A stretch of DNA of 64,000 nucleotides from Candidatus Omnitrophota bacterium (lineage in GTDB: Bacteria > Omnitrophota > Gorgyraeia > Zapsychrales > Zapsychraceae): positions 133,275 through 197,274 of the forward strand of contig JAJDCA010000068.1 in assembly GCA_029261055.1 (NCBI GenBank). Reading direction: 5' to 3'. Shown here piece by piece: positions 10,429 through 33,428 of the stretch. The notes beneath the pieces were generated by a model. It did no database searches. It was not told the DNA's origin and was given only the letters and a program-made list of their open reading frames with translations. Within the stretch, counting starts at the first letter, position 1. The number at the start of each line of letters is the position of its first letter. Made by a program: the position numbers and the translations under genes.

Positions 10429-11937
10429 ATGAATATTCTCTATGTCGTTGACACATTTTCCGTTATTGAACCCATGGGTGTCTTGCATCTTTCGGCAATT
10501 TCTAAAGCCCAGGGCCATAAAAGTTTTATTGCTGCTATTGAAAAAAATAATGTCGAAGAAAAAATTGGACAACACAATATCGATTGTGTTGCCTTCAGTT
10601 TCATGTCTACCGAAGCACGAGGATTCCATCAACTAGCTGAACGCCTGCGCGCACTTCATCCTAATCTTCCCATAATCGCCGGAGGTCCTCACCCAACCTA
10701 TTACCCTCAAATCATTGATTCCTGGCCTATTGATGCTGTTATTGTTGGAGAAGGCGAAGCCGTTTATCCTGAAATAATTAAAAATTTATCTGAAGGCAAA
10801 GATATCTCCCACATTTCCAGCGTTCAAACAAAACACCATAAAAACTCTCAAAAGCTCCTTGTCGAAAATCTAGACGACATCCCTTTTGCAGACCGAGAGC
10901 TATTAAAGGATGTTGCTCCTTACAAATATGTACGCATGAAAACATTTTTTGGAACACGTGGTTGCCCATATAGCTGTAGTTATTGCTTTAACAGTGCATA
11001 TAATAAACTCTACAAAGGGAAAGGCTTAATTATCCGACGGCGATCTGTAGAGAATTTAGTAAGTGAGATTGAACAGGTCGTTCAAAAATATCCTACCGAT
11101 TTTGTCCGTTTCGGTGATGACACCTTTGTTATGAAATACGATGAATGGGTAGAAGAATTTGTAGAGAAATATAAAAAACGTGTCGGACTTCCTTTTTATT
11201 TCCTTATCCACCCAAACCTTGTTACTAAAAAACTCATCGGGGCTATGCGTGAAGCAGGCGCTCATTCTGTAATGATGGGGGTTGAATCTGGTGTGGAACG
11301 TCTTCGTCGTAAAGTCTTAGACCGATATGTCTCAGATGATACGATGGTGGAAGCTTTTAATATCCTCAGAGATAACAAAATTAAAGTTTTCAGCAACACA
11401 ATTCTGGGACTACCAGCTTCAACCTTAAAGGATGACCTTACCTCTTTAGAATTTACCTTAAAATGTAATCCAACTTATTCCGGATTTACAGTTTTCACAC
11501 CATTTCCCGGTACCGGCCTTTATAAATACAGCATTGAAAATGGTTACTTGGATGATGTTGATTCTTTCGAAGATTCTATCCCCAACAGCATGCAGCAAGG
11601 GTCTTGTTTAAAACACATTACTGACAAACAAAAAGACATCCACAAGAACATCTTAGTTCTAGCTCCCGTTGCTAACTTCATGCCATTTCTAAAAAACCTT
11701 ATTGTCAAACACCTCATTTATTGGAAACCTAATAAACTTTTTGATACTATTGGTTTTTTTGTCCGCAACTATTGCAACACACTTATTTTTCCGTTTGGAA
11801 AATCTTTATCAACATTTATCCTTCTCTTTTACAAAGTTCTTCGCATTGATAAAAAGAACTATACGACCCAAACATCTAAAAAACCTTCCGTAGAGACTTC
11901 CTCTTCTACGGCTAGTAGTCAAGAAAATCGCCTTTGA
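10429..11937 (+). CDS. cobalamin (B12)-binding domain radical SAM enzyme (class B radical SAM methyltransferase-like)
   Basis: N-terminal B12-binding Rossmann-like region (LYVVDTF...CVAFSFMSTE...PIIAGGPHPT), then the radical SAM CPYSCSYC motif. ~500 aa, as in class B rSAMs. Confidence 0.75.
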   Translation: MNILYVVDTFSVIEPMGVLHLSAISKAQGHKSFIAAIEKNNVEEKIGQHNIDCVAFSFMSTEARGFHQLAERLRALHPNLPIIAGGPHPTYYPQIIDSWPIDAVIVGEGEAVYPEIIKNLSEGKDISHISSVQTKHHKNSQKLLVENLDDIPFADRELLKDVAPYKYVRMKTFFGTRGCPYSCSYCFNSAYNKLYKGKGLIIRRRSVENLVSEIEQVVQKYPTDFVRFGDDTFVMKYDEWVEEFVEKYKKRVGLPFYFLIHPNLVTKKLIGAMREAGAHSVMMGVESGVERLRRKVLDRYVSDDTMVEAFNILRDNKIKVFSNTILGLPASTLKDDLTSLEFTLKCNPTYSGFTVFTPFPGTGLYKYSIENGYLDDVDSFEDSIPNSMQQGSCLKHITDKQKDIHKNILVLAPVANFMPFLKNLIVKHLIYWKPNKLFDTIGFFVRNYCNTLIFPFGKSLSTFILLFYKVLRIDKKNYTTQTSKKPSVETSSSTASSQENRL

Positions 11938-12002: not shown

Positions 12003-12065
12003 AAATAAAGCCTTTCCCGGATGCCTCGCGTCTTGACGCTGAACATCCAGGAAAGGCTTTATTAT
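12003..12065. terminator. bidirectional rho-independent terminator between convergent genes
   Basis: aaaaaaataaagcctttcccggatg ... catccaggaaaggctttatt: 17-bp perfect stem flanked by A-run/T-run. Confidence 0.7.
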
Positions 12066-12091: not shown

Positions 12092-13099
12092 CTAAAATAT
12101 CTTGGTACCGATCTCTTCCCCTTTTGAAACTGCCGATTGCTTTGCCTTTTGCAAAAATGTTGCTTGTGATAAAAAACGTTTTGAATTTTCTTCCATTCCC
12201 ATAGCCTTAAGACTCATACCCAAATAATAAAATGGCTCATACTGACCTTTATTACTCTCAATATATTTCTGAAAGAAAACTACCGATTTTTCATGCTCCT
12301 CAAGTAAAAAAGCTGCTAACCCTGCATAATAATAAAAGAAACCCTGATCTTCTAACCCTGATGAAATCGCATAATTCGCCATTTGTACCATAACAGAAAA
12401 ATTTTTCAAATAGTACTGACTCAACAACATCAATTTAAAAGCATCTGTATAACTTGTTTTTAAACCCTGATTCATCCATCCTTCCACGTTTTCGCCTTCA
12501 CCCCATATCTGACGATAAATGCCTACTGTATTAATAATTTTTAATGTAATCGCCGGCTTTAATTGAAAAGCCTTTTGAAGTATTGCGTAGGCTTTTTCAT
12601 ACTCTTTTCCATGAAAATAAATAACGCCAAGATTATAAAATGGCCAAAAATTATGAGAGTTTAGCCTAATTGATTCTTGATAAGACTTAACCGCTTTCTC
12701 ATCCTGGCTATTATGGTAATAACAAAATCCTAAAATGTCATGAATACCTGACACGTCAGGATAAAATACAGATGCTTTTTCATAATAATCTATCCTGCTG
12801 CAAGGGCCTGTCCCGCGTAGAAAACCATGCCCTACTTTAGAATTATTGGCTATTTGTTGCACCATATGCGCAAAATTTGGTTTGGAATAGCTTAAAGTAA
12901 CAACCTTAGATTTTTCTTTAACATCATCATGCTGCTTTATAAGCCTCGAAAAACTAAAATTATTTGGAAATAATTCCTGACCTCTACTATAATGAATCAA
13001 TACATAAACAATGTAGGCCGATAAAATAAATAAAAAACAACCTATCGTGGCCCATCTGACTATATACACAATGGTTTTTAATTTTTCTTTAATTGCCAT
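12092..13099 (-). CDS. membrane-anchored TPR-repeat protein (paralogue of the C-terminal modules of 3054..4808 and 38876..42103)
   Basis: N-terminal TM helix. TPR segments YYEKASVFYPDVSGIHDILGFCYYH... closely parallel YYQKIIQYIPNRPDAHGVLGFCLYH... and YYEKINQYMPSRSAAYGLLGFCHYH... Confidence 0.6.
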   Translation of the reverse strand: MAIKEKLKTIVYIVRWATIGCFLFILSAYIVYVLIHYSRGQELFPNNFSFSRLIKQHDDVKEKSKVVTLSYSKPNFAHMVQQIANNSKVGHGFLRGTGPCSRIDYYEKASVFYPDVSGIHDILGFCYYHNSQDEKAVKSYQESIRLNSHNFWPFYNLGVIYFHGKEYEKAYAILQKAFQLKPAITLKIINTVGIYRQIWGEGENVEGWMNQGLKTSYTDAFKLMLLSQYYLKNFSVMVQMANYAISSGLEDQGFFYYYAGLAAFLLEEHEKSVVFFQKYIESNKGQYEPFYYLGMSLKAMGMEENSKRFLSQATFLQKAKQSAVSKGEEIGTKIF

Positions 13100-13115: not shown

Positions 13116-14558
13116 ATGCTAAAAATTTCCCGCAGCATTATCCTGGCCTTCACTTTTTCAATCTTATACTGGATTTACGTGGGGTACGTTTCCCAAATTG
13201 CGTTAGCTAATGATGCGATTGCTTACGACAACCTTGGCTCATTAATCTACAATAATGGTTGGGGCGATTTTTTTAGAACCGGCCCTCATCGGGAACCATT
13301 TTATCCTTTTCTGATATCTGTCACCATGAGCTTGGGGAAACTTTTTTCTATTTCCTATCACATTCCCCAAAAAATCATTCAGTTTTCTTTTTTACTTTTA
13401 ACACAAATTCTTTCCTTAATCATCCTTAAAAAATTAAAAATAAATAATTTTTTATGCGCCTGCATCATTTTGTACATTGGATTTTCTCCGGCTTTCGTTA
13501 ATTCATCCCTAAGTCTATTTTCTGAAATCGCTGCCTACCCTTTTATTCTACTTACCGTCATCTTTGCCAGCACAAGTTACAAAAACATCTTAATTACAAA
13601 AAAAGGTCGTTCCACCCAAAAATTATCACTGCTTTTAGCCTTCTTGTTAGGAACAAGCATCTTAATGATCACTTTTGTGAAAGGTATTTTTGAATTATTC
13701 ATCCCTTTTTTATTGATCCCTTTTTGCATTATGCTTATAAAAACATACCGGCTGAAACAAAAAGAAGCATCTAATAATATCCTTGCCTTTATTATCATTG
13801 CAGCTCTAAGCTTTTATTTACCGTTTAATGCATATAAACTAGCCAATAAAAAATATAATGGTAATTTCACATTTACAACACGCGGAAGTGAAGTTCTTTA
13901 TGCGGAAACCAAACGACGCATGGACAATTTTTCCGCAAAAAACTGGTTAACAGCCCTTGTGTACGTTCCTGGGCACAGATACTGTGAACCTCTTTTTGGT
14001 AATGCCGCTTGTGCGTACTGGACGCCTCTTATCGACATCAATAAGCTACTCTACAATCATAAAGATGAAATTTCAGACGCCCCTACCACAAGCAATGCGT
14101 TTAAAAAAATACTCCTAATGAAAACATTCAAAAGAATCTTTAAAAACCCTTTTGCCTATACCTTAATGACGGCTACGGTGGGACTAAAACTATTTTTTTG
14201 GGAATCGTCCAAACTAGGACATGTGGCTTACCCGGACTGGATGGATAAAATTTTCTGGAACCCCGGACTTGAAAATATTCTCAACTTCAGCGTTGCCTTA
14301 CTTTCTTTTCTTGCTTTTCTCTATCTAATAAAATTTATTTGGCAGCATCGCAAAAATATTTTTGCTTTCAAAACACAAAACAACGAAGTCACTTGTTACC
14401 TTTTATTTGTTTTTCTCATTCTTTCTGTATTTATGACAATCTCATCTCTCTTCATTATCCTCACCAGGTACATGCTCCCCATCGCCCCGCTTTATCTCAT
14501 CATCATTGCTTTTACTATCCAACAAATTGTAAATCGCATCAAATCCCGTCACTCCTGA
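13116..14558 (+). CDS. GT-C family glycosyltransferase (PMT_2/ArnT-like, GT39/GT83-type), 480 aa polytopic membrane protein
   Basis: Loop motif NDAIAYDNLG...GPHREPFYPFLIS resembles the DE..Y....PPLYYW first-loop signature of ArnT/PMT enzymes. At least 11 TM segments. Confidence 0.55.
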   Translation: MLKISRSIILAFTFSILYWIYVGYVSQIALANDAIAYDNLGSLIYNNGWGDFFRTGPHREPFYPFLISVTMSLGKLFSISYHIPQKIIQFSFLLLTQILSLIILKKLKINNFLCACIILYIGFSPAFVNSSLSLFSEIAAYPFILLTVIFASTSYKNILITKKGRSTQKLSLLLAFLLGTSILMITFVKGIFELFIPFLLIPFCIMLIKTYRLKQKEASNNILAFIIIAALSFYLPFNAYKLANKKYNGNFTFTTRGSEVLYAETKRRMDNFSAKNWLTALVYVPGHRYCEPLFGNAACAYWTPLIDINKLLYNHKDEISDAPTTSNAFKKILLMKTFKRIFKNPFAYTLMTATVGLKLFFWESSKLGHVAYPDWMDKIFWNPGLENILNFSVALLSFLAFLYLIKFIWQHRKNIFAFKTQNNEVTCYLLFVFLILSVFMTISSLFIILTRYMLPIAPLYLIIIAFTIQQIVNRIKSRHS

Positions 14559-14946: not shown

Positions 14947-15540
14947 CTAATATTCAATCCCTGGCTGAGCTTTGATGCCTTGTTGGTAAGGATGTTTAAT
15001 ACTTTGCATTTCTGTGACTAAATCAGCAATATTGATTAATTTCTTTGGCGCGCCGCCTCCGGTGAGAATAACATGCTTAAGCGGTGGCTTATTTTTTAAG
15101 GCTTCAATAATTTCATCGGGATCCAGAAAATTAAATTTCATCACATAATTAATCTCATCAAAAATTACAAGAAAATGCTCATCATCCTGCAACACCTCTT
15201 TACATTTGGCCCAAGCCTTCTTTGCCGTTTTGACATCTGCATCAAAATTTTGAGTATCCCACGTAAAACCATCACCAATGGCATGCATCTGACAAAGATC
15301 GGGAAACTTCTTAAAAAACTTGGATTCCCCTGTTTGCCACTTCCCCTTAATAAATTGAACAATCGCCACTTTCTTTCCGCGTCCCATCGCGCGTAAGGCC
15401 GTACCAAAGGCAGCTGTAGATTTCCCCTTACCGTTCCCCGTATGCACCATAATCAATCCTTTTCGAATCGACTTCTTAATGTCTTTATGTTTTCGAGGAG
15501 ATTTATCTTGAACTTTATTTTTGTTTATTTTTTGTGTCAT
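14947..15540 (-). CDS. cobO: cob(I)yrinic acid a,c-diamide / cob(I)alamin adenosyltransferase (CobA/CobO/BtuR family)
   Basis: GLIMVHTGNGKGKSTAAFGTALRAMGRGKKVAIVQFIKG is nearly the BtuR/CobA P-loop signature. Confidence 0.85.
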   Translation of the reverse strand: MTQKINKNKVQDKSPRKHKDIKKSIRKGLIMVHTGNGKGKSTAAFGTALRAMGRGKKVAIVQFIKGKWQTGESKFFKKFPDLCQMHAIGDGFTWDTQNFDADVKTAKKAWAKCKEVLQDDEHFLVIFDEINYVMKFNFLDPDEIIEALKNKPPLKHVILTGGGAPKKLINIADLVTEMQSIKHPYQQGIKAQPGIEY

Positions 15541-15543
15541 TGG

Positions 15544-16479
15544 CTACCTCCATACAACCATCATAAAACAAAATATCACTGTGACCCACGCAGAAGCCAT
15601 CATCAATCGTATGCTTTTGTTTATGTGTTCTTTACGTAAAACCTGAATATTTGAACCCAAATATGTTTTCTTTAATTCTTTTCCTTCGTAATTATTAGCG
15701 CCTCCTAATTGCACATCCAGAGCGCCGGCAAAGGCTGCTTCCGGGATATCACTAATATGCTTAATCTTAATAAACTCCTTAACTCCTTCTTTCATAGCCC
15801 CTTTAACATTATTCTTTGTCATCCATGCCGCTGCTGCAATAAAGAAATACGACAATCTCGACGGAATCCAATTAACAACATCATCGATCTTGGCGGAAAA
15901 ATAACCAAATTTGGCATAACGTTTGTTAAGATGTCCAACCATAGAGTCCAGCGTATTAACGGCTTTATACGCTAAGGCCAACGGAGCTCCGCCAATCGCC
16001 GCGTAAAATAAAGGCGCAATGATACCGTCCACGGTGCTTTCCGCTACAGTCTCAACCGTGGCTCGCACCACTTCCCTTTCATCCAAAGTCTTCGTATCCC
16101 GCCCCACGATTCTGGCAACATCCAGCCGCGCTTTTATTAAATCATTATTTTGCAAATCATTATGTATCTGAACCGCCTCTTTTCGCAAATCATGCACAGA
16201 AATAGCGGTATAAATTCCCAACATATTGACAACCCAAGCCACCGTAGGATGAATCATTGTGCCAATATGCAGAAAATAAAAAACCAACACATACACAAAA
16301 ACGGGCAAACTTATGGCTAATACACCCCCGGCTAAATATTCATTCTTTATCGCCTTCCGATAAAAATCTTCCAACTTTTCAATCGCTTGTCCAATTAGAC
16401 GCGCAGGATGAAATGCGTAAACAGGATCACCAATCCATAAATCTGTTACAAATGCAAAAAATATTCCGGATGCCATCAT
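15544..16479 (-). CDS. cbiB: adenosylcobinamide-phosphate synthase (CbiB/CobD)
   Basis: WIGDPVYAFHPARLIGQ N-terminal signature; ~310 aa membrane protein. Confidence 0.85.
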   Translation of the reverse strand: MMASGIFFAFVTDLWIGDPVYAFHPARLIGQAIEKLEDFYRKAIKNEYLAGGVLAISLPVFVYVLVFYFLHIGTMIHPTVAWVVNMLGIYTAISVHDLRKEAVQIHNDLQNNDLIKARLDVARIVGRDTKTLDEREVVRATVETVAESTVDGIIAPLFYAAIGGAPLALAYKAVNTLDSMVGHLNKRYAKFGYFSAKIDDVVNWIPSRLSYFFIAAAAWMTKNNVKGAMKEGVKEFIKIKHISDIPEAAFAGALDVQLGGANNYEGKELKKTYLGSNIQVLRKEHINKSIRLMMASAWVTVIFCFMMVVWR

Positions 16480-16481: not shown

Positions 16482-17573
16482 TTAAACCATCGCCTTTTCT
16501 AAAGTTTCAATCTTTTTTAATTGATCAAGAAAATACTGATTCTCTGGCCTTAACTTCAAAGCAATACGAAAATAACATGAATCTAATCCTTGAAAACCAT
16601 GAACTTCCCTTACATAAAGCCGCGCTTGTTCTAACCCCTGCATAACACACCTTTGATCCTTAACATCACTAATTTTGCATAAAAAAAAGTTAGCTAGACT
16701 TGCAAATACTTTAATAGTCGGGACAGATGACAAAACTCTCAGAAAATAAGAATGCTCTTCCTTAAACCATTGATGGGTTTCTATTTTAAAAGCTGTGTCT
16801 TCAAGCGCCACCAACCCAAGCTTTTGCGCCACCCCATTACATGACCACGTATCTTGAAAGGGGCGCATGCGATCCATAATCTCTTTATCCGCACATGCAT
16901 AGCCAATACGAATCCCAGCAAGTGCGTAAAATTTTGTTAATGATCGAATCACAATCGTCGTCCGATATTTCTGAATTAACTCAATAACAGAATACTCCGG
17001 ACACCAATCCACAAAAGCCTCATCAATAACCAAATAAACATTTTGCTTTTCGGCGCGCTGCATAAGATACTCTAATGCATTAAATGAAAGAGCTGTTCCC
17101 GTTGGATTATTCGGATGCCCCAGCACAATCATATCTATATCTTCCAGATGTGAAATAATACTCTCTATGGAAAATTGAAACTCATCTTCTGCCTTTAAAA
17201 AAATATCAATAATTTCTGCGCCCTGCAACTCTAATAAACGTCGATACTCATTAAAACAAGGTTCAATCAACAAAGCCTTTTTAGGGCGCAAAGCACGAAT
17301 TACCAACTCAATCAATGAAATAGATCCATTTCCAACCATCACATTTTCCAAATCAAGATGATGCATTGCAGAAATCTTCGCACATAATTTCTCCGCACAA
17401 GGATCAGGATAAACAGCAACTTCATTGATCGACCCAACATAAGCCTGCTTAATCGCCGCAGAAATACCCAAAGGATTAATATTGCTCGAAAAATCAATCA
17501 CCGATTCCAAAGGCACCCCAACCCTCTGCGCAAACCCTTTAATATTCCCCCCATGTATAATTTTCTTTGGCAT
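16482..17573 (-). CDS. cobD: L-threonine-O-3-phosphate decarboxylase (CobD/CobC; class I/II aminotransferase fold)
   Basis: 363-aa PLP aminotransferase-like protein (IDFSSNINPLG..., LTKFYALAGIRIGY) inside the cob cluster; typical of threonine-phosphate decarboxylase. Confidence 0.7.
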   Translation of the reverse strand: MPKKIIHGGNIKGFAQRVGVPLESVIDFSSNINPLGISAAIKQAYVGSINEVAVYPDPCAEKLCAKISAMHHLDLENVMVGNGSISLIELVIRALRPKKALLIEPCFNEYRRLLELQGAEIIDIFLKAEDEFQFSIESIISHLEDIDMIVLGHPNNPTGTALSFNALEYLMQRAEKQNVYLVIDEAFVDWCPEYSVIELIQKYRTTIVIRSLTKFYALAGIRIGYACADKEIMDRMRPFQDTWSCNGVAQKLGLVALEDTAFKIETHQWFKEEHSYFLRVLSSVPTIKVFASLANFFLCKISDVKDQRCVMQGLEQARLYVREVHGFQGLDSCYFRIALKLRPENQYFLDQLKKIETLEKAMV

Positions 17574-17594
17574 AAATTTATTACCCCTAGTGAC

Positions 17595-17709
17595 GCGAAA
17601 TCGCTTTTAAGCATAGATTAACACATTCCGCTCAGAGGAGATCTCGTTCTGCTCGATCTCCAATTCGCTGCATGCATTAATCTATGCTTGGAGCGATTAC
17701 GAATTAAGC
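17595..17709. repeat. multi-stem palindromic element A (13-bp perfect inverted repeat aagcatagattaa/ttaatctatgctt plus nested ggagatc/gatctcc hairpin)
   Basis: Read directly from sequence; lies in the 319-bp gap between cobS and cobD. Confidence 0.6.
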
Positions 17710-17744
17710 AGCAATAATTCCCTTATTTACTATGACTCTTAATC

Positions 17745-17883
17745 GGTAACCTTTCAATAAACTCGTCTTAACAAGAGTTTCTGTTAAAGCCTGTAGGCGA
17801 ATTGGACGCAACAAAAATACTGCGTCCTCTGAGCCGAAAGGTTTTAACAGAAACTCCAATAGACGAGTTTATTGAAAGGTTAC
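17745..17883. repeat. 139-bp near-perfect long hairpin element B (23-bp and 14-bp perfect stems plus inner ggacgca/tgcgtcc hairpin)
   Basis: ggtaacctttcaataaactcgtct ... agacgagtttattgaaaggttac, and gagtttctgttaaa ... tttaacagaaactc. Candidate structured RNA, attenuator or MITE-like insertion. Confidence 0.6.
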
Positions 17884-17892
17884 TTGAATAGA

Positions 17893-18648
17893 CTAGTTAG
17901 AATTTACAATCAAAACTAAATAAACAAAGACTTCTGTTAATTCTCCTGTGGCGCCGATCACATCGCCGGTGATTCCACCGATTCGTTTTTTGTAGAACTT
18001 ACTTAACAAATAAATAAAAATCCCGCTTAACAATACGGCAACAATGCCGGTGATCCCTAAAAATAAACTCACAATTAAAACAAACACTGTGCTTAGAAAA
18101 ATCTGCACTTCGGAAACAGCTCCCGCCACCTCTTGACCCAAGCCTTTTTCAGTACGCGCATACGGCAATAAAAAACAAATGAAACCATGGGCCCACCGTG
18201 ATAAGCCTATAGCCAAAATAAAACCGGCATTCTGTTGCGGCAACATGACAAGACATTCCCATTTCATCAGCAGCAAGAATACAACACTCAATGTGCCCCA
18301 CACCCCAATACGCGAATCCTTCATAACATGGAGAATATCGTGTTTATCTTTTCCCTGAAAAAAGGCATCAAAAGAATCGGCCAAACCGTCAATATGTAAT
18401 CCACCGCTTATGATGATAGGCAATAAAACTAAAAATAAACTCAATAACCGCGGTGAAAAATAATGAGAAAAAATTCCAACAATAAAAAGTGAAATTACCG
18501 CAATAAAAAAACCTACTAAAGGAAAATAGGCCATTGCTTGAGATAAAGAAATTCTTTCTTCCTTATTAGTGACAGCTAAAGGAATGATTGTTAGAAAAGA
18601 AAACGCAAGTCGTAAATTACTAAACCAATTAAAAGATTTTCCGAGCAT
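17893..18648 (-). CDS. cobS: adenosylcobinamide-GDP ribazoletransferase (cobalamin synthase CobS)
   Basis: FLTIIPLAV and multi-TM CobS architecture. Start moved to the internal ATG (MLGKS...) to avoid overlap with cobT. Confidence 0.8.
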   Translation of the reverse strand: MLGKSFNWFSNLRLAFSFLTIIPLAVTNKEERISLSQAMAYFPLVGFFIAVISLFIVGIFSHYFSPRLLSLFLVLLPIIISGGLHIDGLADSFDAFFQGKDKHDILHVMKDSRIGVWGTLSVVFLLLMKWECLVMLPQQNAGFILAIGLSRWAHGFICFLLPYARTEKGLGQEVAGAVSEVQIFLSTVFVLIVSLFLGITGIVAVLLSGIFIYLLSKFYKKRIGGITGDVIGATGELTEVFVYLVLIVNSN

Positions 18649-18667
18649 CGCATCCTCGGACAACTTC

Positions 18668-19738
18668 CTAGATGGTTTCTTTTTTATTGGCAACTTCGGC
18701 CTCCTTAAATGTGGCGACTTCATTATAAATGCGCGCGCCGGCTTCTAAAATATTAAGGGCCAAAGCAGCCCCGCTGGCTTCCCCTAATCGCATGGATAAA
18801 TTAAGTAAAGGCCGCTGCTTGAATTCTTCAAAAACGTAACGATGGCCACCTTCTTGAGATTCATGCGCTAAGAATACATAATCTAGAATTGCTGGATTTA
18901 ATCGAAAAGCAATAAGTGTCGCGGCGGCCACAATCAACCCATCCACCACAACAGGAATAGATTTATGTGCACCCGCTAAAATAGCCCCTGTCATCGCAGC
19001 AATTTCTAAACCACCTAATCTTTGTAAAACATCAAGGGGAGCATTCAATTCAGCTCTATACTTTTTTATCGCCTCATCAATAACCTTTATCTTTAATTTA
19101 AGCCCATCATCATCAACACCCGTTCCGCGCCCCGTGACTTTAGCGGCAGGAAGATTTAAAATGGCGGCAATCACCGCTGCCGCTGAGGTTGTATTGCCGA
19201 TCCCCATTTCACCTAACGCTAAAATTTTAATACTGTCTTTTTCAGCCGCCTCAACCATATCCCACCCCACCTGCAGGGCCTGATCTAATTCATCCGCAGA
19301 CATCGCCGACTCTATTTTTAAATTCCCTGTCCCTTTTCTCACTTTAGCTTTTATTAAATCCGAATGATCGTTCAAATCCCCGTCAACGCCGACATCAATT
19401 ACTTTCACATCGGCTCCGAGTTGCCGAGCCAAAGCATTAATAGTCGCGCCGCCATTAATAAAATTCAAAACCATCGCCTGAGTTACTTCACGTGGATATA
19501 AACTGACGCCCTCTTGTTCCACCCCATGATCTGCCGCAAAGACAAGAATACGTTTTTTGCTTACATCCAATCGCTCTGCTTTCTGAATAGAGACCAACTT
19601 ACAAATCATTTCTTCAAGCTGCCCCAAACTTCCTTGTGGCCGCGTTTGTTCATCTAGACGTGCTTGTCCTTTTTTTAACCAAGCGGCATCAACACGTTTA
19701 ATACACTTTGATTTCTCTATCCACTTATCACTCATCAC
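18668..19738 (-). CDS. cobT: nicotinate-nucleotide--dimethylbenzimidazole phosphoribosyltransferase
   Basis: LGEMGIGNTTSAAAV and LAHESQEGGH match CobT motifs. Confidence 0.85.
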   Translation of the reverse strand: MMSDKWIEKSKCIKRVDAAWLKKGQARLDEQTRPQGSLGQLEEMICKLVSIQKAERLDVSKKRILVFAADHGVEQEGVSLYPREVTQAMVLNFINGGATINALARQLGADVKVIDVGVDGDLNDHSDLIKAKVRKGTGNLKIESAMSADELDQALQVGWDMVEAAEKDSIKILALGEMGIGNTTSAAAVIAAILNLPAAKVTGRGTGVDDDGLKLKIKVIDEAIKKYRAELNAPLDVLQRLGGLEIAAMTGAILAGAHKSIPVVVDGLIVAAATLIAFRLNPAILDYVFLAHESQEGGHRYVFEEFKQRPLLNLSMRLGEASGAALALNILEAGARIYNEVATFKEAEVANKKETI

Positions 19739-20280
19739 TTATCACTTACCCCTTTCACCCATTGAGGAATTCCTGAAATTAACATCACCACCTCATCGCT
19801 AACAACCGCCATTCGCTGATTCACTCGCCCAAGTCTATCAGCATAACGCCGCGCTAATGTATTATCCGGCATAATACCTAAACCAACCTCATTGGTCACA
19901 ATTATGATATTGGCTCTTGGCTGCGACAAAATTTTAATAAATGCCTCTATTTGACTTTCAATAGCTGACTCATCATCCGAAAATTGATGAAAAAGATTAT
20001 TGATCCACATCGTCGCGCAATCCACTAAAATAACTTCTGTATCGGTTTGCACATTTTTTATAGCTTGCGCTAAATGCACCGATTCTTCCACTGTTTTAAA
20101 ATCCTGCCCTCGCTCTTCTTGATGCTTTCTTATTTTTATCCGCATGTGCTCGTCAAAAGCCGTTGCTGTCGCAATCATCAGCCGGCCCTCATTAAATTTA
20201 TTTGCCAAATCAAGCGCAAAACGACTCTTCCCGCTTTTAATACCACCGGTAACCAATATTACTTTCTTAGACGCATCCAT
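19735..20280 (-). CDS. cobU: adenosylcobinamide kinase / adenosylcobinamide-phosphate guanylyltransferase
   Basis: ILVTGGIKSGKSRFA P-loop; 181 aa; cob cluster context. Confidence 0.85.
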   Translation of the reverse strand: MDASKKVILVTGGIKSGKSRFALDLANKFNEGRLMIATATAFDEHMRIKIRKHQEERGQDFKTVEESVHLAQAIKNVQTDTEVILVDCATMWINNLFHQFSDDESAIESQIEAFIKILSQPRANIIIVTNEVGLGIMPDNTLARRYADRLGRVNQRMAVVSDEVVMLISGIPQWVKGVSDK

Positions 20281-20893
20281 GGGGAACGATTCCTTTTAGA
20301 GGAGTAGGGCTATTTAACAAAACAAGCTGTGTGGAATATTGATATTTACCAATCACCGTCATGGATCCCGGATCAATCCGAAATTGTGACAAATGCTGTT
20401 CACTCAGCTTTAATAATTCAAGTAAAAATATGCGGATGGGACCACCGTGGGTGACAATAATAATTTTCTTATTGTCATAATGGGATTGGCAGTACCGAAT
20501 AAAAGATTTGATACGCTTTTTAAGAGATGCAATAGATTCGCCGCCCTTCGGCGTTAGGATTTTTCCTTTAGACCATTTCTCATACGAAGCATCTTTTTCT
20601 TCTAACAATTCATTGGCTGTTTTCCCTTCCCAAACACCAAATCCCAACTCATCTAAACGCGCATCAACTTTAGGTTTTTTATTTAAAGGGGAACAAAAAA
20701 TTTTGGCGGATTCCTTACAACGATCTAACTGTGATGAAAAAATAACATCTGGCTGAAACTTAGATATTTCAGATACAAAACGACGAACCTGCCCTCGCCC
20801 CTTAGCTGTTAGTGGAGTGTTGGTCTTACCTTGATATCGCCGTTCCTTCGTCCAAAGCGTTTCCCCGTGACGAATAAGAACAAAATGAATCAT
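20267..20893 (-). CDS. cobC: alpha-ribazole-5'-phosphate phosphatase (histidine phosphatase family)
   Basis: LIRHGETLWT (RHG motif) N-terminus; 208 aa; cob cluster context. Confidence 0.75.
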   Translation of the reverse strand: MIHFVLIRHGETLWTKERRYQGKTNTPLTAKGRGQVRRFVSEISKFQPDVIFSSQLDRCKESAKIFCSPLNKKPKVDARLDELGFGVWEGKTANELLEEKDASYEKWSKGKILTPKGGESIASLKKRIKSFIRYCQSHYDNKKIIIVTHGGPIRIFLLELLKLSEQHLSQFRIDPGSMTVIGKYQYSTQLVLLNSPTPLKGIVPHGCV

Positions 20894-21608: not shown

Positions 21609-22289
21609 TTACGCCCCATTGCTTTTCTTCCATCGTTCAACACCCTGATGAATAACCTCATAAACAACCGCCCCTATGAGATACCCTACATCTGTATGTT
21701 TCCCCGCATACTTTCTTTGACTTTCTAAATCTGTAATCGGCGCAGCAATTCCAATGCAATCTGTTCCTGTTCCGGTAGCAGGCAAACCACTATGACTACT
21801 TGGATATTGAGAATCTAATATGGCCGCAGTTCTTGCTTCGGCGGCTATAGAAATAGCCTCAACCATAGCCTCATCGGATAAGGCCGTTGACAACTGGACA
21901 ATAAGATTAATCGTCCCGATATGATCTGCAGAACCTGGTAAATCCCCGACACGTAATGCATTTGTCATGCCTACTGTCGCAATGCAACGCGCTAAATTTT
22001 GGCAAAAATCCTTTTCGATGTCAATAAAAGTTTCCAGCTCAGCACTGGTTAATAACCCGACAGCCTCTTCCAGCCCCTTTTGTTTTAGCTTTTCTTGTAA
22101 AAATAAGCCCGGGTTAACATCCCGACCGATCTCTTGATCCTCAACTCTGTACCAAGCAAATTGACGTGACTGCCGCATCCCCCCATTTAAAACCGCCCAA
22201 CTTAACACTTTATGCGGCTGTTCAAACGCCACTGTAAGCCAATTTCCTTCTTGAATAATTTCAGTTTGCATAGGTTTTTTCCAAATCAA
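21609..22289 (-). CDS. cbiZ: adenosylcobinamide amidohydrolase
   Basis: ~225 aa with the GLPATGTGTDCIG segment characteristic of CbiZ; cob salvage context. Confidence 0.6.
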   Translation of the reverse strand: MIWKKPMQTEIIQEGNWLTVAFEQPHKVLSWAVLNGGMRQSRQFAWYRVEDQEIGRDVNPGLFLQEKLKQKGLEEAVGLLTSAELETFIDIEKDFCQNLARCIATVGMTNALRVGDLPGSADHIGTINLIVQLSTALSDEAMVEAISIAAEARTAAILDSQYPSSHSGLPATGTGTDCIGIAAPITDLESQRKYAGKHTDVGYLIGAVVYEVIHQGVERWKKSNGA

Positions 22290-23883
22290 GTATTTCCTCT
22301 AACACCTTCATATCCATATGCTTTTCAAATTCATTGGCTAATCGATCATAAGGCGAAGCCTCATTTAATTCTGTATTTTCAAACGACTCAATAGGGAATA
22401 GACTGGCTGAAACACGAATTTTATTAATAAAATACCGCCGAAAATCATCCTTTTCAAACAATCCATGAATGTATGTTCCCCATATGCAATCTCTATGATA
22501 TCCTTCGCCCCCTTCAGCAGGTTTACCCTCACGCTCTATAATTTGAAAAAACGGCTCTGCCTTGTTTAGATAATGCGTCTGCCCCATATGAATTTCATAC
22601 CCTTCCACAGGCAATTGACTTTCCACATGAACACCCTTAACTTGCACCGTTATTTTTTCTTTAGAAAAAGCTGTCGTCATAGGAATCAATTGCAGCCCCT
22701 CTGTAACCTTTGTATTTGATTCAACCGCATACGGATCTTCAATAGCTTGCCCCAACATTTGATAACCGCCACATATACCCAATACAGATGATCCTGCACG
22801 TAAACAGCGTTGAATATGTTCACCAAATCCTGTTCGTTTTAAGAAATCTAAATCACTAATCGTATTTTTTGTCCCCGGAATAATCAAAAGGTCAGGAATA
22901 ATATTACGATCGGGCCTTTCGATAAAATCCAACATAATATCTTGCTCTTTATTTAAATGATCAAAATCTGTAAAGTTAGATATGCGCGGCAAACGGATGA
23001 CATGAACTAATAAATTGGTCCGCGGGTCCTGCCGCATCCAATCGTTCGCGGGCCCCTCCGCCCGGTGTGGATCCTCCCGCTCACTGGATTGGCCGCGCCA
23101 CCCGCTAGATGCAATCGAAGTTTTGGGATAGCTTCTATGCTGAAATCCTTTTTTCTTCTCAAGAACAACCGCATCCTCTTGTTCAATATCTAAATTTGGA
23201 AACATCGGAAGGACCCCCAGAGACTTTCTTTGTATTTTATTTTCTATCCATTCTAAACCAGATATAAAAAGATCTTTATCTCCACGAAATTTATTAATAA
23301 TAAATGTTTTGACCAAATTTTTTTCTTCTTCATCAAAAAGATCAAACGTCCCCACGATTTGCGCAAATACCCCGCCTTTATCAATATCCCCGACTAAAAT
23401 CACAGGCGACTTAACCGCCTTAGCCACCGACATATTCACAATATCTTTATCTTTAATATTCACTTCCGCCGGGCTTCCCGCACCTTCAATCACCACAATA
23501 TCATAATCCTGCCGTAATTGATTCAAGGCCTCATGAGCCCGTTCCATCAAAATCTGCCGTCTTTGATAATAATCCTTAGCCTCAAGCGTATCAAAAACCT
23601 TACCCATCACAATCACCTGTGACGTCTTGTCTGTATTAGGTTTTAACAAAATAGGATTCATAAACACGGTAGGTTCAATCCCGCAAGCCTCAGCCTGCAC
23701 AGCCTGCGCCCGTCCAATCTCACCACCGCCTGCCGTGACATAAGAATTATTAGACATATTCTGCGCCTTAAACGGCGCCACCCGAAACCCCCGCCGTTTT
23801 AACAAACGACAAATAGCGGTAGCCACAACACTCTTCCCCACATCCGACCCCGTCCCCTGAACCATGATTGTTTTAGCTAACAT
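22261..23883 (-). CDS. cobQ: cobyric acid synthase (CobQ/CbiP), carrying an extra ~40-aa hydrophilic insert in the inter-domain linker
   Basis: TIMVQGTGSDVGKSV N-terminus; C-terminal glutamine amidotransferase domain (LGICGGYQMLG, IHGLFE). Confidence 0.85.
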   Translation of the reverse strand: MLAKTIMVQGTGSDVGKSVVATAICRLLKRRGFRVAPFKAQNMSNNSYVTAGGGEIGRAQAVQAEACGIEPTVFMNPILLKPNTDKTSQVIVMGKVFDTLEAKDYYQRRQILMERAHEALNQLRQDYDIVVIEGAGSPAEVNIKDKDIVNMSVAKAVKSPVILVGDIDKGGVFAQIVGTFDLFDEEEKNLVKTFIINKFRGDKDLFISGLEWIENKIQRKSLGVLPMFPNLDIEQEDAVVLEKKKGFQHRSYPKTSIASSGWRGQSSEREDPHRAEGPANDWMRQDPRTNLLVHVIRLPRISNFTDFDHLNKEQDIMLDFIERPDRNIIPDLLIIPGTKNTISDLDFLKRTGFGEHIQRCLRAGSSVLGICGGYQMLGQAIEDPYAVESNTKVTEGLQLIPMTTAFSKEKITVQVKGVHVESQLPVEGYEIHMGQTHYLNKAEPFFQIIEREGKPAEGGEGYHRDCIWGTYIHGLFEKDDFRRYFINKIRVSASLFPIESFENTELNEASPYDRLANEFEKHMDMKVLEEILDLEKTYAN

Positions 23884-24244
23884 TTTTTTTAAACCCAACT
23901 TTTAATCCTAGAGATGTTCCATTTAACTTCTTGTCCAGGGACCAAAGCACTGCATTTGAAAGAAAGGTTGCAGCAAGCAGGTGCACATCAATATAACCTA
24001 AACCTTTTCCCATCAATTTCTTATTTTCAATAAATTCTAAAACTTCTTGATGATTGGCCTGAATGGCTTTTGGAAGTGCCAGCAACAAAGAAAGTATTTC
24101 TTTTCTATTCTTAATATTTCCACAAGCAAGTTCACCGATAATATAATGATGACATATAACATCACCCTCATTGAGCAACTTGACAAGTTGGGCATTTCCG
24201 GTCCGGAAATGATCAATCCATACGGATGTATCTACAAGAACCAT
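23873..24244 (-). CDS. vapC: PIN-domain toxin (VapC family)
   Basis: MVLVDTSVWIDHFR... with conserved acidic residues; 123 aa; paired with the upstream VapB. Confidence 0.75.
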   Translation of the reverse strand: MVLVDTSVWIDHFRTGNAQLVKLLNEGDVICHHYIIGELACGNIKNRKEILSLLLALPKAIQANHQEVLEFIENKKLMGKGLGYIDVHLLAATFLSNAVLWSLDKKLNGTSLGLKVGFKKNVS

Positions 24245-24256
24245 TTATTAATCCCT

Positions 24257-24442
24257 TCATTTTCTTCTTGGAATTGATTGTAGTTTCTTTTCGGACCCCC
24301 CTAATTTTGCCAATCTATGACCGCTTTCCAATGATATCAAAGCTTCTAAACCACGCTTAATAAGATAAGTTTTTTCCTTAATTCCTGTTAACTGCGAAGC
24401 TCTCTTGAGCAATGCGTCTTCAATATTCAATGTAGTTCTCAT
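24257..24442 (-). CDS. vapB: VapB-family antitoxin (PSK/Rv0623-like)
   Basis: MRTTLNIEDALLKRASQLTGIKEKTYLIKRGLEALISLESGHRLAKLGGSE matches the type II VapB (PSK trans-factor) consensus. Confidence 0.7.
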   Translation of the reverse strand: MRTTLNIEDALLKRASQLTGIKEKTYLIKRGLEALISLESGHRLAKLGGSEKKLQSIPRRK

Positions 24443-24454
24443 ATCACCCCTCCT

Positions 24455-24500
24455 TTCAAATATGCAATATTATATGCATAAGTATGCATTATTAATGCAT
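24455..24500. promoter_or_regulatory. putative vapBC operator: three TATGCAT/ATGCATA half-sites (atatgcataagtatgcattattaatgcatacatg)
   Basis: Repeated palindromic hexamers immediately upstream of vapB, consistent with TA autoregulation. Confidence 0.35.
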
Positions 24501-24525
24501 ACATGTCAAAGAGTATTTCTCATAA

Positions 24526-25938
24526 TTATTTTTTGTTAGCCCTTTTCATATAATCCCGTGCTCGCTGAATAAGCATGTGCGCCCTTTTGGGATATGATAA
24601 AAAATGACAGTGGACGTAGCTCGCCAAAACATTATTCGAGCAATATCCTTCCAGCCGCTGGGACCGTCTTCTTTTCTTCTTAACTTCATGAATTGAATGC
24701 GTGCCTTCATCCGACCAACGTGAATAGTGAAATTCATGCCCTCGAAAGGAATCTCCCGCATCGCCTAAAAAACACTTTTTTAAAATTTGATTTTCACAAT
24801 AACCAAAATGGACAAGCTTTTCTGTCATTTCGATTTGGCCGGAAATAATACCTGCCATATTGTAAACTTCACCGCTTAACACCTTCACAGATTCTGCCAA
24901 ATAAATAAGCCCTCCACATTCTGCATAAGTCGGTATTCCTTGTTTAATCAAATTTTGTACAGACTCTCGCATAGACACATTTTCTTCAATCTCTTTTGCA
25001 TAAACTTCCGGAAAGCCTCCCCCAAAATAAAGCGCACCAATATCCTCAGGAAGCTGCGTGTCGTTTAAAGGACTAAAAGGTATCAATGTTGCGCCACATG
25101 ATTCCAGAAAATCTAAATTGGCCTGATAATAAAACTGAAAGGCCTTATCCTTGGCATACGCAATACGCACAGATTTTTTTAATGTTCTCTGAGGAGAAAT
25201 CGCGTCTGACTTAAAAAAAAAATTATTCTTACTTTCTTGCGCAATTTTAAGAATCTTATTTAAATTGATCTGCGTTGAATCATTATCGTCTTCTGTGGTT
25301 GTATATTTCTTAAGTTCATTCAAACATGTTTTCAAATCATCATTTTCCGATGCCGTCGTTAAACCTAAATGCCGTTCCGGAATAAAAATTGTTTCATCTT
25401 TAAAAATAACTCCGAGCACGGGGATCTGATTATAAAACTGAACCGACTCTTTGAGCATATCTAAATGCCCTTGGCTAGCCACACGATTTAAAATAACGCC
25501 GCAAATATGAATATCGGAATCTAATGTTTGATATCCTTTAATAACAGCTGCCACCGACCGCGCCATTCTTCCGGCATCCACAACTAAAATGACAGGGGCT
25601 TGAAGAATCTTCGCAATATTTGCCGTGCCTCCTTCATCGCTTGTGTTAGAGAAACCATCAAACAATCCCATCACCCCCTCGATAACGGCAATATCACATC
25701 CAACTGTTTCTTTCTGAAATAATGCACAGACTTGTTCTTTTCCCATCATCCAATCATCTAAATTATGTGACGGCAACCCCGTTGCGACAGCATGATAGCT
25801 TGGATCAATGTAGTCAGGGCCAACTTTGAAAGCCCGAACCTTAATCCCCATACCCCGAAATCCCTGCATAATACTTAATGCAACCGATGTTTTTCCTACA
25901 CCGCTATGAGTTCCGGCAATAATAATTTTAGTCTGCAT
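24526..25938 (-). CDS. cbiA: cobyrinic acid a,c-diamide synthase (CbiA/CobB)
   Basis: IIIAGTHSGVGKTSVALSIM N-terminus; C-terminal GATase domain; 470 aa. Confidence 0.85.
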   Translation of the reverse strand: MQTKIIIAGTHSGVGKTSVALSIMQGFRGMGIKVRAFKVGPDYIDPSYHAVATGLPSHNLDDWMMGKEQVCALFQKETVGCDIAVIEGVMGLFDGFSNTSDEGGTANIAKILQAPVILVVDAGRMARSVAAVIKGYQTLDSDIHICGVILNRVASQGHLDMLKESVQFYNQIPVLGVIFKDETIFIPERHLGLTTASENDDLKTCLNELKKYTTTEDDNDSTQINLNKILKIAQESKNNFFFKSDAISPQRTLKKSVRIAYAKDKAFQFYYQANLDFLESCGATLIPFSPLNDTQLPEDIGALYFGGGFPEVYAKEIEENVSMRESVQNLIKQGIPTYAECGGLIYLAESVKVLSGEVYNMAGIISGQIEMTEKLVHFGYCENQILKKCFLGDAGDSFRGHEFHYSRWSDEGTHSIHEVKKKRRRSQRLEGYCSNNVLASYVHCHFLSYPKRAHMLIQRARDYMKRANKK

Positions 25939-25942
25939 AATT

Positions 25943-26728
25943 CTAAACGGTTGTTTCTGTAGGATGATACTCAGGATACCTCTCCTGAATCACTTTACGC
26001 GAATACGAATAATGATGAACAATCTGTTCTGTGGTGTATTTATGTTCACGGGCATACGGGCAGGCTAATCGGGCAAGACAACGATCTTGGCAAATCGAGT
26101 TTTCTTCTAGGCGAAATGGCAGGCATGTCTTTTTGTTAAAATCACCTAATGTTTCCGCAATTTCGGATACAGCCCCGGACGGACAGGCCTTTATGCAAGG
26201 TTTATCTTCACACGTCGCACACGGTGAGTTGAAAATTTGACGTGATGTTTCCGGCAAATTGAGTGTGGCTAAGAAAACAGATCGATACGCATGCCACACT
26301 CCAAATTCTTTATGAATATTTTTACCTAAAGGGGTCGGATGTGTCCATCCAAGCCAATGCGTAAATGTTTGAATAGGAAAACGTGGCAATCTTTTAGGAA
26401 ATAAAGGAACAATTTCACTTCCTTTTAAATACGTTTTAATAAACTCAGGCACAATCCTTTCTGTAAAACAATTAACCGGATCAATAGGGTCTCGATTTTC
26501 ATTATCTAAAGCCTTCCAAAGCTGCCTTCCACCGCTGCCAATGGTAATAAGCGAAGAGAATTTCCCAAAATCGATATTCTGTGCGGCTAAATCATCTAGA
26601 ATATCTTGCGGAAGTGATGAGCTAGCTGTAATAGAAAATAAATTGTATCCGTTTTGTGATAAAAATTGAACTCCTTGAGATAGATGCTCTTTCATCACAC
26701 CTTTTCCTTTTTTTGAACCCGACCCCAT
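25943..26728 (-). CDS. Cys-rich ferredoxin-like Fe-S protein of unknown function embedded in the corrinoid cluster
   Basis: C-terminal CATCEDKPCIKACP and CQDRCLARLACP motifs (Cys spacings not canonical CxxCxxCxxxCP); 261 aa. Confidence 0.4.
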   Translation of the reverse strand: MGSGSKKGKGVMKEHLSQGVQFLSQNGYNLFSITASSSLPQDILDDLAAQNIDFGKFSSLITIGSGGRQLWKALDNENRDPIDPVNCFTERIVPEFIKTYLKGSEIVPLFPKRLPRFPIQTFTHWLGWTHPTPLGKNIHKEFGVWHAYRSVFLATLNLPETSRQIFNSPCATCEDKPCIKACPSGAVSEIAETLGDFNKKTCLPFRLEENSICQDRCLARLACPYAREHKYTTEQIVHHYSYSRKVIQERYPEYHPTETTV

Positions 26729-27486
26729 GGCACGACATAAAATCCTTCTTTACCCTGACCATACTTGGCTGTAATCCCATAAGCGGTTTCCAAATTCTTA
26801 GATGTTAAAACTTCTTTGGGCGTCCCCGAAACGAGAATTTTACCTTCATTCAACAAATACAATTTGTGACAATACCGTGCCGCTAAGGATAGATCATGCA
26901 AAACAACCGCAACGCCCCGGCCATCCTCAGCCATTTTACGTAATAATTGCATCACCTGAATTTGGTGATTTGGATCTAATCCGGAAACAGGCTCATCTGC
27001 CAAAAGAATATTTGACTGAACAGCAATAGCCCGCGCCAACATCACAAGTCGCTTTTCTCCGCCGGATAATTTTGTTACCGTTCGTCCACTCAGATGATCT
27101 ATTTCTGCTAATGCCATAGATTGTTGAATAGCCGCAGCATCTTGCTGAGATAATTGTTGCCATGCCGAAAGATGCGGTAGGCGACCAAGCGCCACCACTT
27201 TTTCTACTTTTAATGGCCAATGAATAGTATCTCCTTGCGCCATGTAACTTAAAGACTGACTTAATGCCTTGTGCGTAATATCCTTTAATGGATGTCCTGA
27301 CAATTCAATATCTCCACTCTTAAAAGGAAGCAACCTGGCCAAACTTTTTAACAATGTTGTTTTCCCCGTTCCGTTTGAACCAATGATTCCGATTAATTCA
27401 CCTTTTTGAATTTTGAGACTTACATCTTTGACAATCAAATGATCGCCCAAATAAACAGAAATATTTTTGGCTTCTAATAAAGTCAT
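26695..27486 (-). CDS. ABC transporter ATP-binding protein (BtuD/FecE-type, corrinoid/iron-chelate importer)
   Basis: Walker A GSNGTGKTT, signature LSGGEKRLV, Walker B LLADEP. Confidence 0.8.
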   Translation of the reverse strand: MTLLEAKNISVYLGDHLIVKDVSLKIQKGELIGIIGSNGTGKTTLLKSLARLLPFKSGDIELSGHPLKDITHKALSQSLSYMAQGDTIHWPLKVEKVVALGRLPHLSAWQQLSQQDAAAIQQSMALAEIDHLSGRTVTKLSGGEKRLVMLARAIAVQSNILLADEPVSGLDPNHQIQVMQLLRKMAEDGRGVAVVLHDLSLAARYCHKLYLLNEGKILVSGTPKEVLTSKNLETAYGITAKYGQGKEGFYVVPWGRVQKKEKV

Positions 27487-28502: not shown

Positions 28503-28512
28503 ATTTTCATTG

Positions 28513-29460: not shown

Positions 29461-29520
29461 GAACAAACCTCGGGGGATTGCTTGTTTTCTTGAATGCAAA
29501 CCCCCGAGGTTTATTTTTAT
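29401..29520. repeat. two tandem REP-family palindromes (cctcgggggtttg / caaacccccgagg cores) between tonB and the btuF-like gene
   Basis: Same core as the REPs flanking the RAYT gene at 52.6-53.5 kb. Confidence 0.7.
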
Positions 29521-29527
29521 TTTCATC

Positions 29528-30572: not shown

Positions 30573-30573
30573 A

Positions 30574-31203: not shown

Positions 31204-31215
31204 TTTATTTCCCCT

Positions 31216-33111: not shown

Positions 33112-33130
33112 ATTCTTTCCTTTCAATAAA

Positions 33131-33345: not shown

Positions 33346-33428
33346 TTAAAGATCAATAAACCCAACGCGCGCTAATATATCATGATTTTTAAAATAGTCA
33401 AATTTTAAAATGCCCAACAATAAACGCA

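Follow-up and report, generated by a model that had tools for sequence, protein, structure and literature searches.

What fills the one wide gap in an otherwise closely packed cobalamin (cob) operon, and how did it come to lie there? In the 64-kb window (the whole stretch of DNA that was analysed, 64,000 nucleotides), cobC, cobU, cobT, cobS, cobD, cbiB, cobA/btuR and a DUF4346 gene follow one another in this order on the - strand, and every junction from cobC to the DUF4346 gene is tight with the sole exception of that between cobS and cobD. The first-pass annotation placed a gap of 319 bp at this junction, and the coordinates of the two genes bear this out exactly (Table 1). The position is extragenic and downstream of a coding region, between an intact cobS, which ends in a TAG stop codon at 17893-17895 and whose product is 251 aa as called by Logan, and an intact cobD, which from the names of its homologues (threonine-phosphate decarboxylase) appears to encode a CobD of the Salmonella type. 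Two small ORFs that lie within the gap, of 51 and 29 aa, were considered as genes and rejected, being mirror products of a palindrome with nothing in their support.

Table 1. Positions within the 64-kb window of the hairpin insert, its component parts and the neighboring cob genes
Feature	Position	Strand	Evidence or remark
cobC (His_Phos_1)	20267-20893	-	
cobU	19735-20280	-	
cobT	18668-19738	-	
cobS (cobalamin-5-phosphate synthase)	17893..18723, longest ORF	-	PF02654, E 6e-51
CTAGT, right copy of possible target-site duplication, overlapping cobS stop codon	17893..17897		
cobS-cobD gap, 319 bp	17574-17892		
Element B, three-layer hairpin, 138 nt	17746..17883	.	outer 23-bp perfect stem 17746-17768 / 17861-17883
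B middle palindrome GAGTTTCTG-TTAA...TTAA-CAGAAACTC, around core	17775..17856	.	14-bp perfect arms 17775-17788 / 17843-17856
B REP-like core CCT-GTAG-GC-GAATT-GGACGCA-loop-TGCGTCC-TCTGA-GCC-GAA-AGG	17790..17841	+	covariance model 58.3 bits, E 7.5e-14; structural alignment
B tag GTAG, directly 5' of core palindrome	17793..17796	+	read from sequence
A/B spacer, forms a weak hairpin	17702..17745	.	z -1.4; 21/200 shuffles fold equally well, not significant
Element A, complete nested hairpin, 106 nt	17596..17701	.	fold -41.8 (+) / -47.5 (-) kcal/mol as RNA
A host palindrome AAGCATAGA-TTAA...TTAA-TCTATGCTT, around core	17609..17689	.	13-bp perfect arms 17609-17621 / 17677-17689
A REP-like core CAT-GCAG-C-GAATT-GGAGATC-loop-GATCTCC-TCTGA-GC-GGA-ATG	17624..17674	-	covariance model 62.3 bits, E 5.5e-15; structural alignment
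GCAG tag of A (fits GYAG, a variant of GTAG), directly 5' of core palindrome	17668..17671	-	read from sequence
CTAGT, left copy of possible target-site duplication	17587..17591		
GGGG, putative motif of Shine-Dalgarno type, 10 nt upstream of cobD ATG	17584..17587	-	read from sequence
cobD (threonine-phosphate decarboxylase, aminotransferase class I/II)	16482..17573	-	PF00155, E 1.3e-43
cbiB	15544-16479	-	
cobA/btuR	14947-15540	-	

A comparison of the junction across related genomes had been proposed as a check, and it was informative. The order cobC-cobU-cobT-cobS-cobD-cbiB recurs in three independent relatives, in each of which the gap is missing and cobS overlaps cobD by 1-8 nt; the nearest relative is about 50% identical at the protein level, and the comparison is one between distant genomes. 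The C terminus of CobS and the N terminus of CobD align end to end with those of the relatives, and both ORFs are full length. Because the genes overlap in the relatives and the flanking ORFs are complete here, the ~300 bp constitute a lineage-specific insert between intact genes. The closest homologue of this CobD besides itself is about 50-52% identical among 5.8 billion clustered proteins, and the named homologues, at about 40-44% identity, come mostly from Candidatus Omnitrophota MAGs. Without the insert the junction would span ...TCTAACTAGGGGTAATAAATTTATG....

The insert is built of two nested hairpins, A and B, on either side of a short spacer. The first-pass annotation had described element A as a 13-bp perfect inverted repeat enclosing a 7-bp hairpin, and element B as a 139-bp sequence with perfect stems of 23 and 14 bp and an inner 7-bp hairpin; all of these stems were recovered, and the one correction needed was to the length of B, which is 138 bp. 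The inner stems read GGAGATC/GATCTCC in A and GGACGCA/TGCGTCC in B, and in A a further outer stem stretches the element to its full 106 nt. The prediction that B would form a very stable RNA also held when both strands were folded, with -80.1 (+) and -75.7 (-) kcal/mol at z-scores of -16.9 and -14.5, and with z about -14 as single-stranded DNA. For A, the corresponding z-scores were -7.0 (+) and -7.5 (-) as RNA and -4.8 and -6.2 as single-stranded DNA, and for the whole gap they were -12.3 (+) and -13.7 (-). Both elements thus qualify as imperfect palindromes, with z between -5 and -17 whichever strand is folded and whether it is taken as RNA or ssDNA; no shuffle matched the real sequence in any of the tests on the gap, A or B, and a sliding fold placed B as the most stable 140-nt fold of the 64-kb window. 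In each element a REP-like core sits in the middle of a host palindrome, and both host palindromes would be perfect and TTAA-centered if the cores were removed.

The relation between the two hairpins, which the first-pass annotation had missed, is one of homology, with the two lying in opposite orientations. When the + strand of A is set beside the - strand of B, both show the arrangement GCTCAGAGGA-[stem-loop]-TCCAATTCGC, which matches twice in the window and not once in 100 shuffles, and by local alignment the homology covers about 65 nt with TTAA at either end. MAFFT alignments of the cores came out of register, and the alignment used here was made by hand on the basis of structure. The two elements are collinear throughout: from the outside inward, both have a 9-bp outer stem, TTAA, a 2x2 mismatch, a 3-bp stem and a 3x3 loop that has a pair at its center, followed by a G-C stem of 2-3 bp, a 5x5 internal loop, the 7-bp stem and a terminal loop of 10-11 nt. 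The 5x5 internal loop, which on A+ and B- reads UCAGA/AAUUC, is identical at 10 of 10 nucleotides, as are the pyrimidine-pyrimidine mismatches that flank it, and the terminal loops differ. Among the 23 base pairs that can be compared, 12 are identical and 11 have changed on both sides and yet remain paired; one-sided changes and broken pairs are both absent. On this comparison, A and B are one element family in two orientations, the structure of which is actively maintained.

Eleven double compensatory changes that preserve the stems while the loops stay invariant are the signature expected of a functional RNA, and we asked whether the insert might be a selected cis-acting element of the cob mRNA that sets the cobS:cobD ratio, through RNase III or RNase E, as a barrier to 3'-exonucleases or by stalling ribosomes at the cobS stop, with the conserved internal loop as a protein-binding site. 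The placement would suit such a role, since B begins 9 nt past the cobS stop codon and both elements are extremely stable as RNA; REPs near stop codons reportedly lower translation of the upstream gene. The insert must also be transcribed through, because it lies inside the operon and has neither a terminator nor a promoter: no intrinsic terminator was found in the gap on either strand, with no T-run after A or B, and no convincing promoter was found there either. Correia (CREE) elements offer a documented parallel in that their hairpins bind RNase III, which cleaves or protects them (PMC2649163). Against a selected RNA stands the opposite orientation of the two copies, by which the mRNA would display the conserved loop in B and its complement in A, together with the missing gap in the three relatives that share the gene order and the lack of any Rfam match. 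Compensatory changes on both sides of the hairpin are, moreover, common in REPINs (Bertels and Rainey 2011, PMC3116915), for which compensation along with a conserved motif has been reported, so that the signature is shared with selfish repeats, and an inserted repeat that was later exapted would look the same in sequence. We consider a selected RNA of this kind unlikely.

The same observations bear on two narrower proposals of the first-pass annotation. An attenuator that splits the operon is not supported, given the lack of a U-tract after either hairpin on either strand and of a convincing promoter. A riboswitch or other known noncoding RNA is not supported either, given the copies on opposite strands, the relatives that lack the gap and the Rfam searches, in which no family reached its gathering score anywhere in the window, a permissive scan of the gap returned only noise (E > 2) and a permissive scan of 22000-38500 returned nothing at E <= 0.1. 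The earlier statement that the gap holds no B12 box agrees with these results.

Conserved unpaired positions between variable stems are also found in integron attC sites, which have variable stems and conserved unpaired spacers within 57-141 nt, and a folded single-strand recombination site of this or another type (Xer/dif-like, or a rolling-circle origin) was considered alongside the chance that the palindromes, which can be chimeras, are an artefact of assembly. The arms of A (GATTAAC/ATTAATC) and of B (GTTAAAG/TTTTAAC) do not fit the R-box consensus RYYYAAC/GTTRRRY, by which an attC site was rejected; no integron-like cassette array is apparent, and the flanking cob genes are conserved in synteny. 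As to an artefact, an independent Logan assembly (run SRR15505515) reproduces both arms exactly, with a sequence identical to that of the window, and the flanking ORFs are intact. Two of the Logan contigs stop at the apex of B (17812 / 17824), as would be expected because short-read assemblers break at long palindromes. Between them, a recombination site and an artefact seem to us highly improbable.

If A and B are members of a repeat family, further copies might be present elsewhere. We built a covariance model from hand-edited A and B cores, the B core having been shortened by one base pair and the A core by one base of its loop, and used it solely as a search device. With filters off, it found no third copy of the core in the 64 kb, and the next match after A and B (14.9 bits) lies inside a coding region. 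String searches, a loop-plus-stem descriptor run with shuffles, and blastn-short likewise returned no core in the window besides A and B, and no empty copies of either host palindrome were present within it. Beyond the window, the exact pattern GCTCAGAGGA-N10-35-TCCAATTCGC gave 9, 18 and 0 matches in genome, metagenome and viral collections, respectively, all of them chance matches that form no hairpin; none of these 27 sequences exceeds 27 bits under the core model, as against 58-62 bits for A and B. A blastn comparison of the gap with annotated plasmids and phages gave no match.

That just two copies occur in the window, adjacent and inverted, would also be expected if the insert had arisen on the spot, its palindromes grown by template switching or inverted duplication and A and B being the diverged halves of a local inverted duplication. 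The layered and almost perfectly symmetrical architecture is in keeping with this. A derivation of the B arms from the 3' end of cobS was nevertheless rejected as not above chance: against the flanking cobS and cobD sequence, 131/500 and 327/500 shuffles, respectively, score as well as the real arms. Divergence with perfect compensation would, in addition, require selection or arm-to-arm conversion, and the tag and the genomic context described below fit the biology of REPs. A purely local origin without mobility is in our judgment very unlikely.

The first-pass annotation also listed a MITE-type insertion among its possibilities. Insertion as such is supported by the gap-free relatives, the inverted copies and the REP/Y1 background of the window, and the part that fares worse is the classical MITE with terminal inverted repeats (TIR) and a target-site duplication (TSD). 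The most specific version of this idea is that a single transposase-mobilized MITE of ~301 bp, IS5- or IS630-like, inserted at CTAG and carried A and B as parts of one composite element. The sequence CTAGT does bracket the insert exactly, and it is rare: CTAG occurs 50 times in the window as against about 220 expected (4.4-fold under-represented), and two of the 7 occurrences of CTAGT in the 64 kb are those at the insert borders. Deleting 17592-17897 would give a compact junction, restoring TAG-GGGGTAATAAATTT-ATG. On sequence grounds, then, the CTAGT pair could be a target duplication. In a generic test, however, some shared 5-mer between the border zones appeared in 43% of shuffles, which is not significant, and the two termini of the 301-bp segment do not form an inverted repeat. 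A and B fold separately and differ in their outer stems, the searches of the window and the collections gave no further copy, and no IS5 or IS630 transposase was seen. Element B alone does have 23-bp terminal inverted repeats, but these have no flanking direct repeat. To our knowledge, REP/RAYT-type insertion makes no target duplications, so the CTAGT repeat may be a coincidence or a target preference. We give a composite MITE at CTAG little chance, and a palindromic repeat of the REP/BIME type suits the sequence features of the insert better than a classical TIR+TSD MITE does.

Palindromic repeats abound in the window. The ORF at 52698-53444 encodes a Y1 (IS200-like) transposase domain, Y1_Tnp, above the Pfam cut-off, and it is bracketed by doublets of a REP family, AACCGTAAACAAACCTCGGGGGTTTG..., that has 12 arms in the window; by analogy, this ORF and its bracketing doublets would be a RAYT with its REPs. 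A cluster of the AACCGTAAACAAACCTCGGGGGTTTG family at 29392-29521, at another operon junction (TonB / periplasmic binding protein), takes the form of a doublet within a doublet and ranks second in fold stability across the window. Hairpins tagged with GTAG/GTAC make up a second family, arranged as inverted pairs with the tags inward (45189-45265 and 46589-46652). As the first-pass annotation had noted, A and B stand outside these families, and the profile of the main REP family gives no match to them even at E <= 100. The one Y1_Tnp gene of the window is flanked by REPs of a family other than A/B. That the outer hairpin of B might belong to the AACCGTAAAC REP family and have diverged from it was rejected, the family profile having no match even at E <= 100.

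The remaining large gap of the cob cluster, at 23899-24525 between cbiA and cobQ, holds a VapB/VapC (PIN) module, and in a relative two CbiA-family amidase genes overlap. Because of the A/B insert and the VapBC module, the cob operon would seem to have picked up selfish inserts more than once.

Within A and B themselves, the shared core of about 50 nt comprises a GYAG tag, a short G-C stem, the 5x5 loop, the 7-bp stem and the terminal loop. The tag is GTAG in B and GCAG in A, both of which fit GYAG; it was noticed post hoc, with a chance of ~1-2% by our own estimate. The two tags are in opposite orientation and face inward (TT), 121 nt apart. A reading of the elements by CGTC tags (GACG left of A, CGTC in the outer stem of B) was tried and rejected, their stems and loops being a misfit to the published CGTC families, which have 8-9 bp stems and 4-5 nt loops.

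Taken together, we think it probable that A and B form a tail-to-tail REP/BIME-like heterodimer nested in palindromes, a selfish insert specific to this lineage. The element has not been described previously and is most likely selfish repeat DNA rather than a B12 riboswitch or a purpose-built regulator. A and B are known from two adjacent copies in 64 kb, and repetitiveness is the defining property of REPs. A bolder proposal is that the shared core is no decaying repeat but a new structured recognition module under selection, either the substrate of a Y1-type enzyme that targets the centers of palindromes or a protein-binding RNA that partitions the cob operon of this deep-branching, uncultivated lineage. 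A Y1-type enzyme inserting into palindrome centers would account for the layered growth; all the same, we regard a new module of either kind as distinctly unlikely.

With the tail-to-tail repeat pair as the preferred reading, a course of events can be proposed. A cluster of non-autonomous selfish DNA with maintained structure would have inserted into a compact and probably translationally coupled cobS-cobD junction. A Y1 (RAYT-type) transposase, for which the unpaired tag and loop could serve as recognition features, may have mobilized the unit as a hairpin of single-stranded DNA, and the nested layers might stem from insertion into, or co-mobilization with, longer palindromes. Once in place, the insert would be co-transcribed with the cob genes and fold to duplexes of about 50-56 bp; the translational coupling of cobS and cobD would be lost, and cobD would now have a ribosome-binding site of its own in the GGGG motif. 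Element B, with its near-perfect duplex of 23 + 15-18 bp, could plausibly be cleaved by RNase III or hold up exonucleases. Behavior of this kind is known from E. coli REPs. Such RNA-level effects, plausible as they are, are regarded here as by-products and not as the reason for the element's existence, and a later exaptation of the inserted repeat is possible.

If this reading is true, its value lies mainly in annotation, in that a pair of large hairpins within a B12 operon might otherwise pass for a riboswitch or an attenuator. It would further extend tagged, nested REP-like elements to a lineage without close sequenced relatives, and would provide a clean natural case of a repeat that splits a translationally coupled gene pair. 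With their invariant loops and fully compensated stems, A and B would be good candidate substrates for learning how Y1 transposases read irregularities in hairpins. As an object, the insert is of an ordinary kind, a palindromic repeat cluster that is unusually elaborate and unusually placed.

How far, then, do A and B resemble the systems already known? To integron attC sites the likeness is one of principle only, in the variable stems, the conserved unpaired positions, the presumed recognition of a folded strand and the length; unlike attC sites, A and B have no R-box consensus, cassette array or integrase context. The hairpin MITEs that act in mRNA (Neisseria Correia/CREE, enterobacterial ERIC and cyanobacterial Nezha) resemble A and B in being near-perfect palindromes of 100-150 bp that are co-transcribed and predicted to form long dsRNA. 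A and B differ from these in that neither element singly has the signature of terminal inverted repeats plus a target duplication, in that there is no family of near-identical copies, and in that their sequences have diverged while the structure was kept.

Among REPs, precedents exist for the irregular features of A and B. One end of a REP bears an unpaired tag, GTAG or CGTC, and in some families GTAG has decayed to GYAG, GTRG and the like; their dimers have the tags either outside (HH) or inside (TT), and heterodimers with different stems and loops are common (PMC3733652). Some families have long stems broken by mismatches, family size ranges from <20 to thousands of copies, and tagged REPs are present in the PVC superphylum (PMC3733652). 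Cleavage by the E. coli RAYT needs both GTAG and unpaired residues near the loop (recounted in PMC3733652). In A. variabilis, T. roseum and H. neapolitanus, REPs or their dimers are found inside longer palindromes, which in the first and last of these species never occur empty (PMC3733652). A and B match these nested REPs in the central position of the unit within a longer palindrome and in the lack of empty copies in the window. They depart from them in enclosing single units instead of dimers, in the additional 23-bp layer of B and in having host palindromes that differ in sequence between A and B.

The closest likeness is to the GTAG-tagged REPs, BIMEs and REPINs with their RAYTs (Nunvar 2010; PMC3116915; Di Nocera et al. 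2013, PMC3733652). A and B differ from these in a core of ~50 nt with a 5x5 loop, longer and more bulged than the usual REP of 20-40 nt, in the 121 nt between the tags as against the usual 20-100, and in being known from two copies. They agree with them in being extragenic imperfect palindromes with a partly unpaired GTAG/GYAG tag, and in forming an inverted heterodimer with inward tags, compensated hairpins and a site in an operon downstream of a coding region. They agree also in their setting, a genome that has a Y1/RAYT-like transposase and other REP families. On this comparison, each unusual feature of A and B finds a published precedent among REP families.

The cbiA-type and cobQ-type genes of the cob cluster are separated by an insert encoding VapB and VapC, and the pair of CbiA-family genes overlaps in a relative, L036. 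No Pfam match was found for the 480-aa ORF at 13116-14558, to whose protein cluster other sources contribute 51-aa fragments only. Genes for B12 biosynthesis, salvage and transport abound in the window, as do B12-dependent radical SAM genes; no cobalamin riboswitch, other Rfam family or tRNA was found across positions 1-64000. Over the same span CTAG is strongly avoided (50 occurrences versus ~220 expected from base composition), C strongly exceeds G on the plus strand (23.6% versus 15.9%), and most genes lie on the minus strand.

Logan contigs of run SRR15505515 from the same organism (L001, L029 and L030) end at long palindromes, namely at 17812/17824, the apex of hairpin B in the cobS-cobD gap, and at 63051, directly past the hairpin at 62992-63049. 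Because Logan assembly breaks at long palindromes, contig ends can mark such elements in assemblies of this kind. The hairpin with 29-bp arms at 12004-12063 could act as a terminator in both directions or represent a further palindromic element. The core pattern common to hairpins A and B also matched two alphaproteobacterial MAG contigs (L003, 4188-4235; L010, 7554-7591), where the matches belong to a local repeat of AATTCGCT(CAGA/GT) words present in both contigs, unrelated and without a hairpin.

Features of the window, with positions and strands
Feature	Position	Strand	Remarks
Radical SAM/B12-binding gene	10429-11937	+	beside 29-bp-arm hairpin
Hairpin, 29-bp arms (AATAAAGCCTTTCCCGGATGCC...)	12004-12063		intergenic, convergent gene pair
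TPR gene	12092-13099	-	beside 29-bp-arm hairpin
480-aa ORF	13116-14558	+	divergent from cob genes
cobQ-type gene	22261-23898		
VapB/VapC insert	23873-24442		
VapC toxin, PIN-domain	23873-24244		PF01850
VapB antitoxin	24257-24442		PF09957
cbiA-type gene	24526-25938		
Additional AACCGTAAACAAACCTCGGGGGTTTG-family arms	29392-29521; 46900-46927; 47914-47939; 62992-63049		profile search
Second REP family, GTAG/GTAC + GGGCATGAT-N2-ATCATGCCC	45189-45265; 46589-46652		tail-to-tail inverted doublets
ORF with Y1/IS200-like transposase domain	52698-53444	-	248 aa; PF01797, 29.4 bits vs cut-off 23

Doublets of the second, GTAG/GTAC-tagged REP family flank the ORF at 45263-46549 on both sides. For the AACCGTAAACAAACCTCGGGGGTTTG family, a profile search gave 12 arms in total in the window. 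One of its doublets is nested inside another at the TonB/periplasmic-binding-protein junction, a single arm lies at each end of the Dus gene, and a hairpin with perfect 27-bp arms adjoins the RadC-like gene. The family also forms inverted doublets on either side of the Y1 ORF (region 52631-53462), and the ORF together with these flanking doublets has a RAYT/REPtron-like layout.
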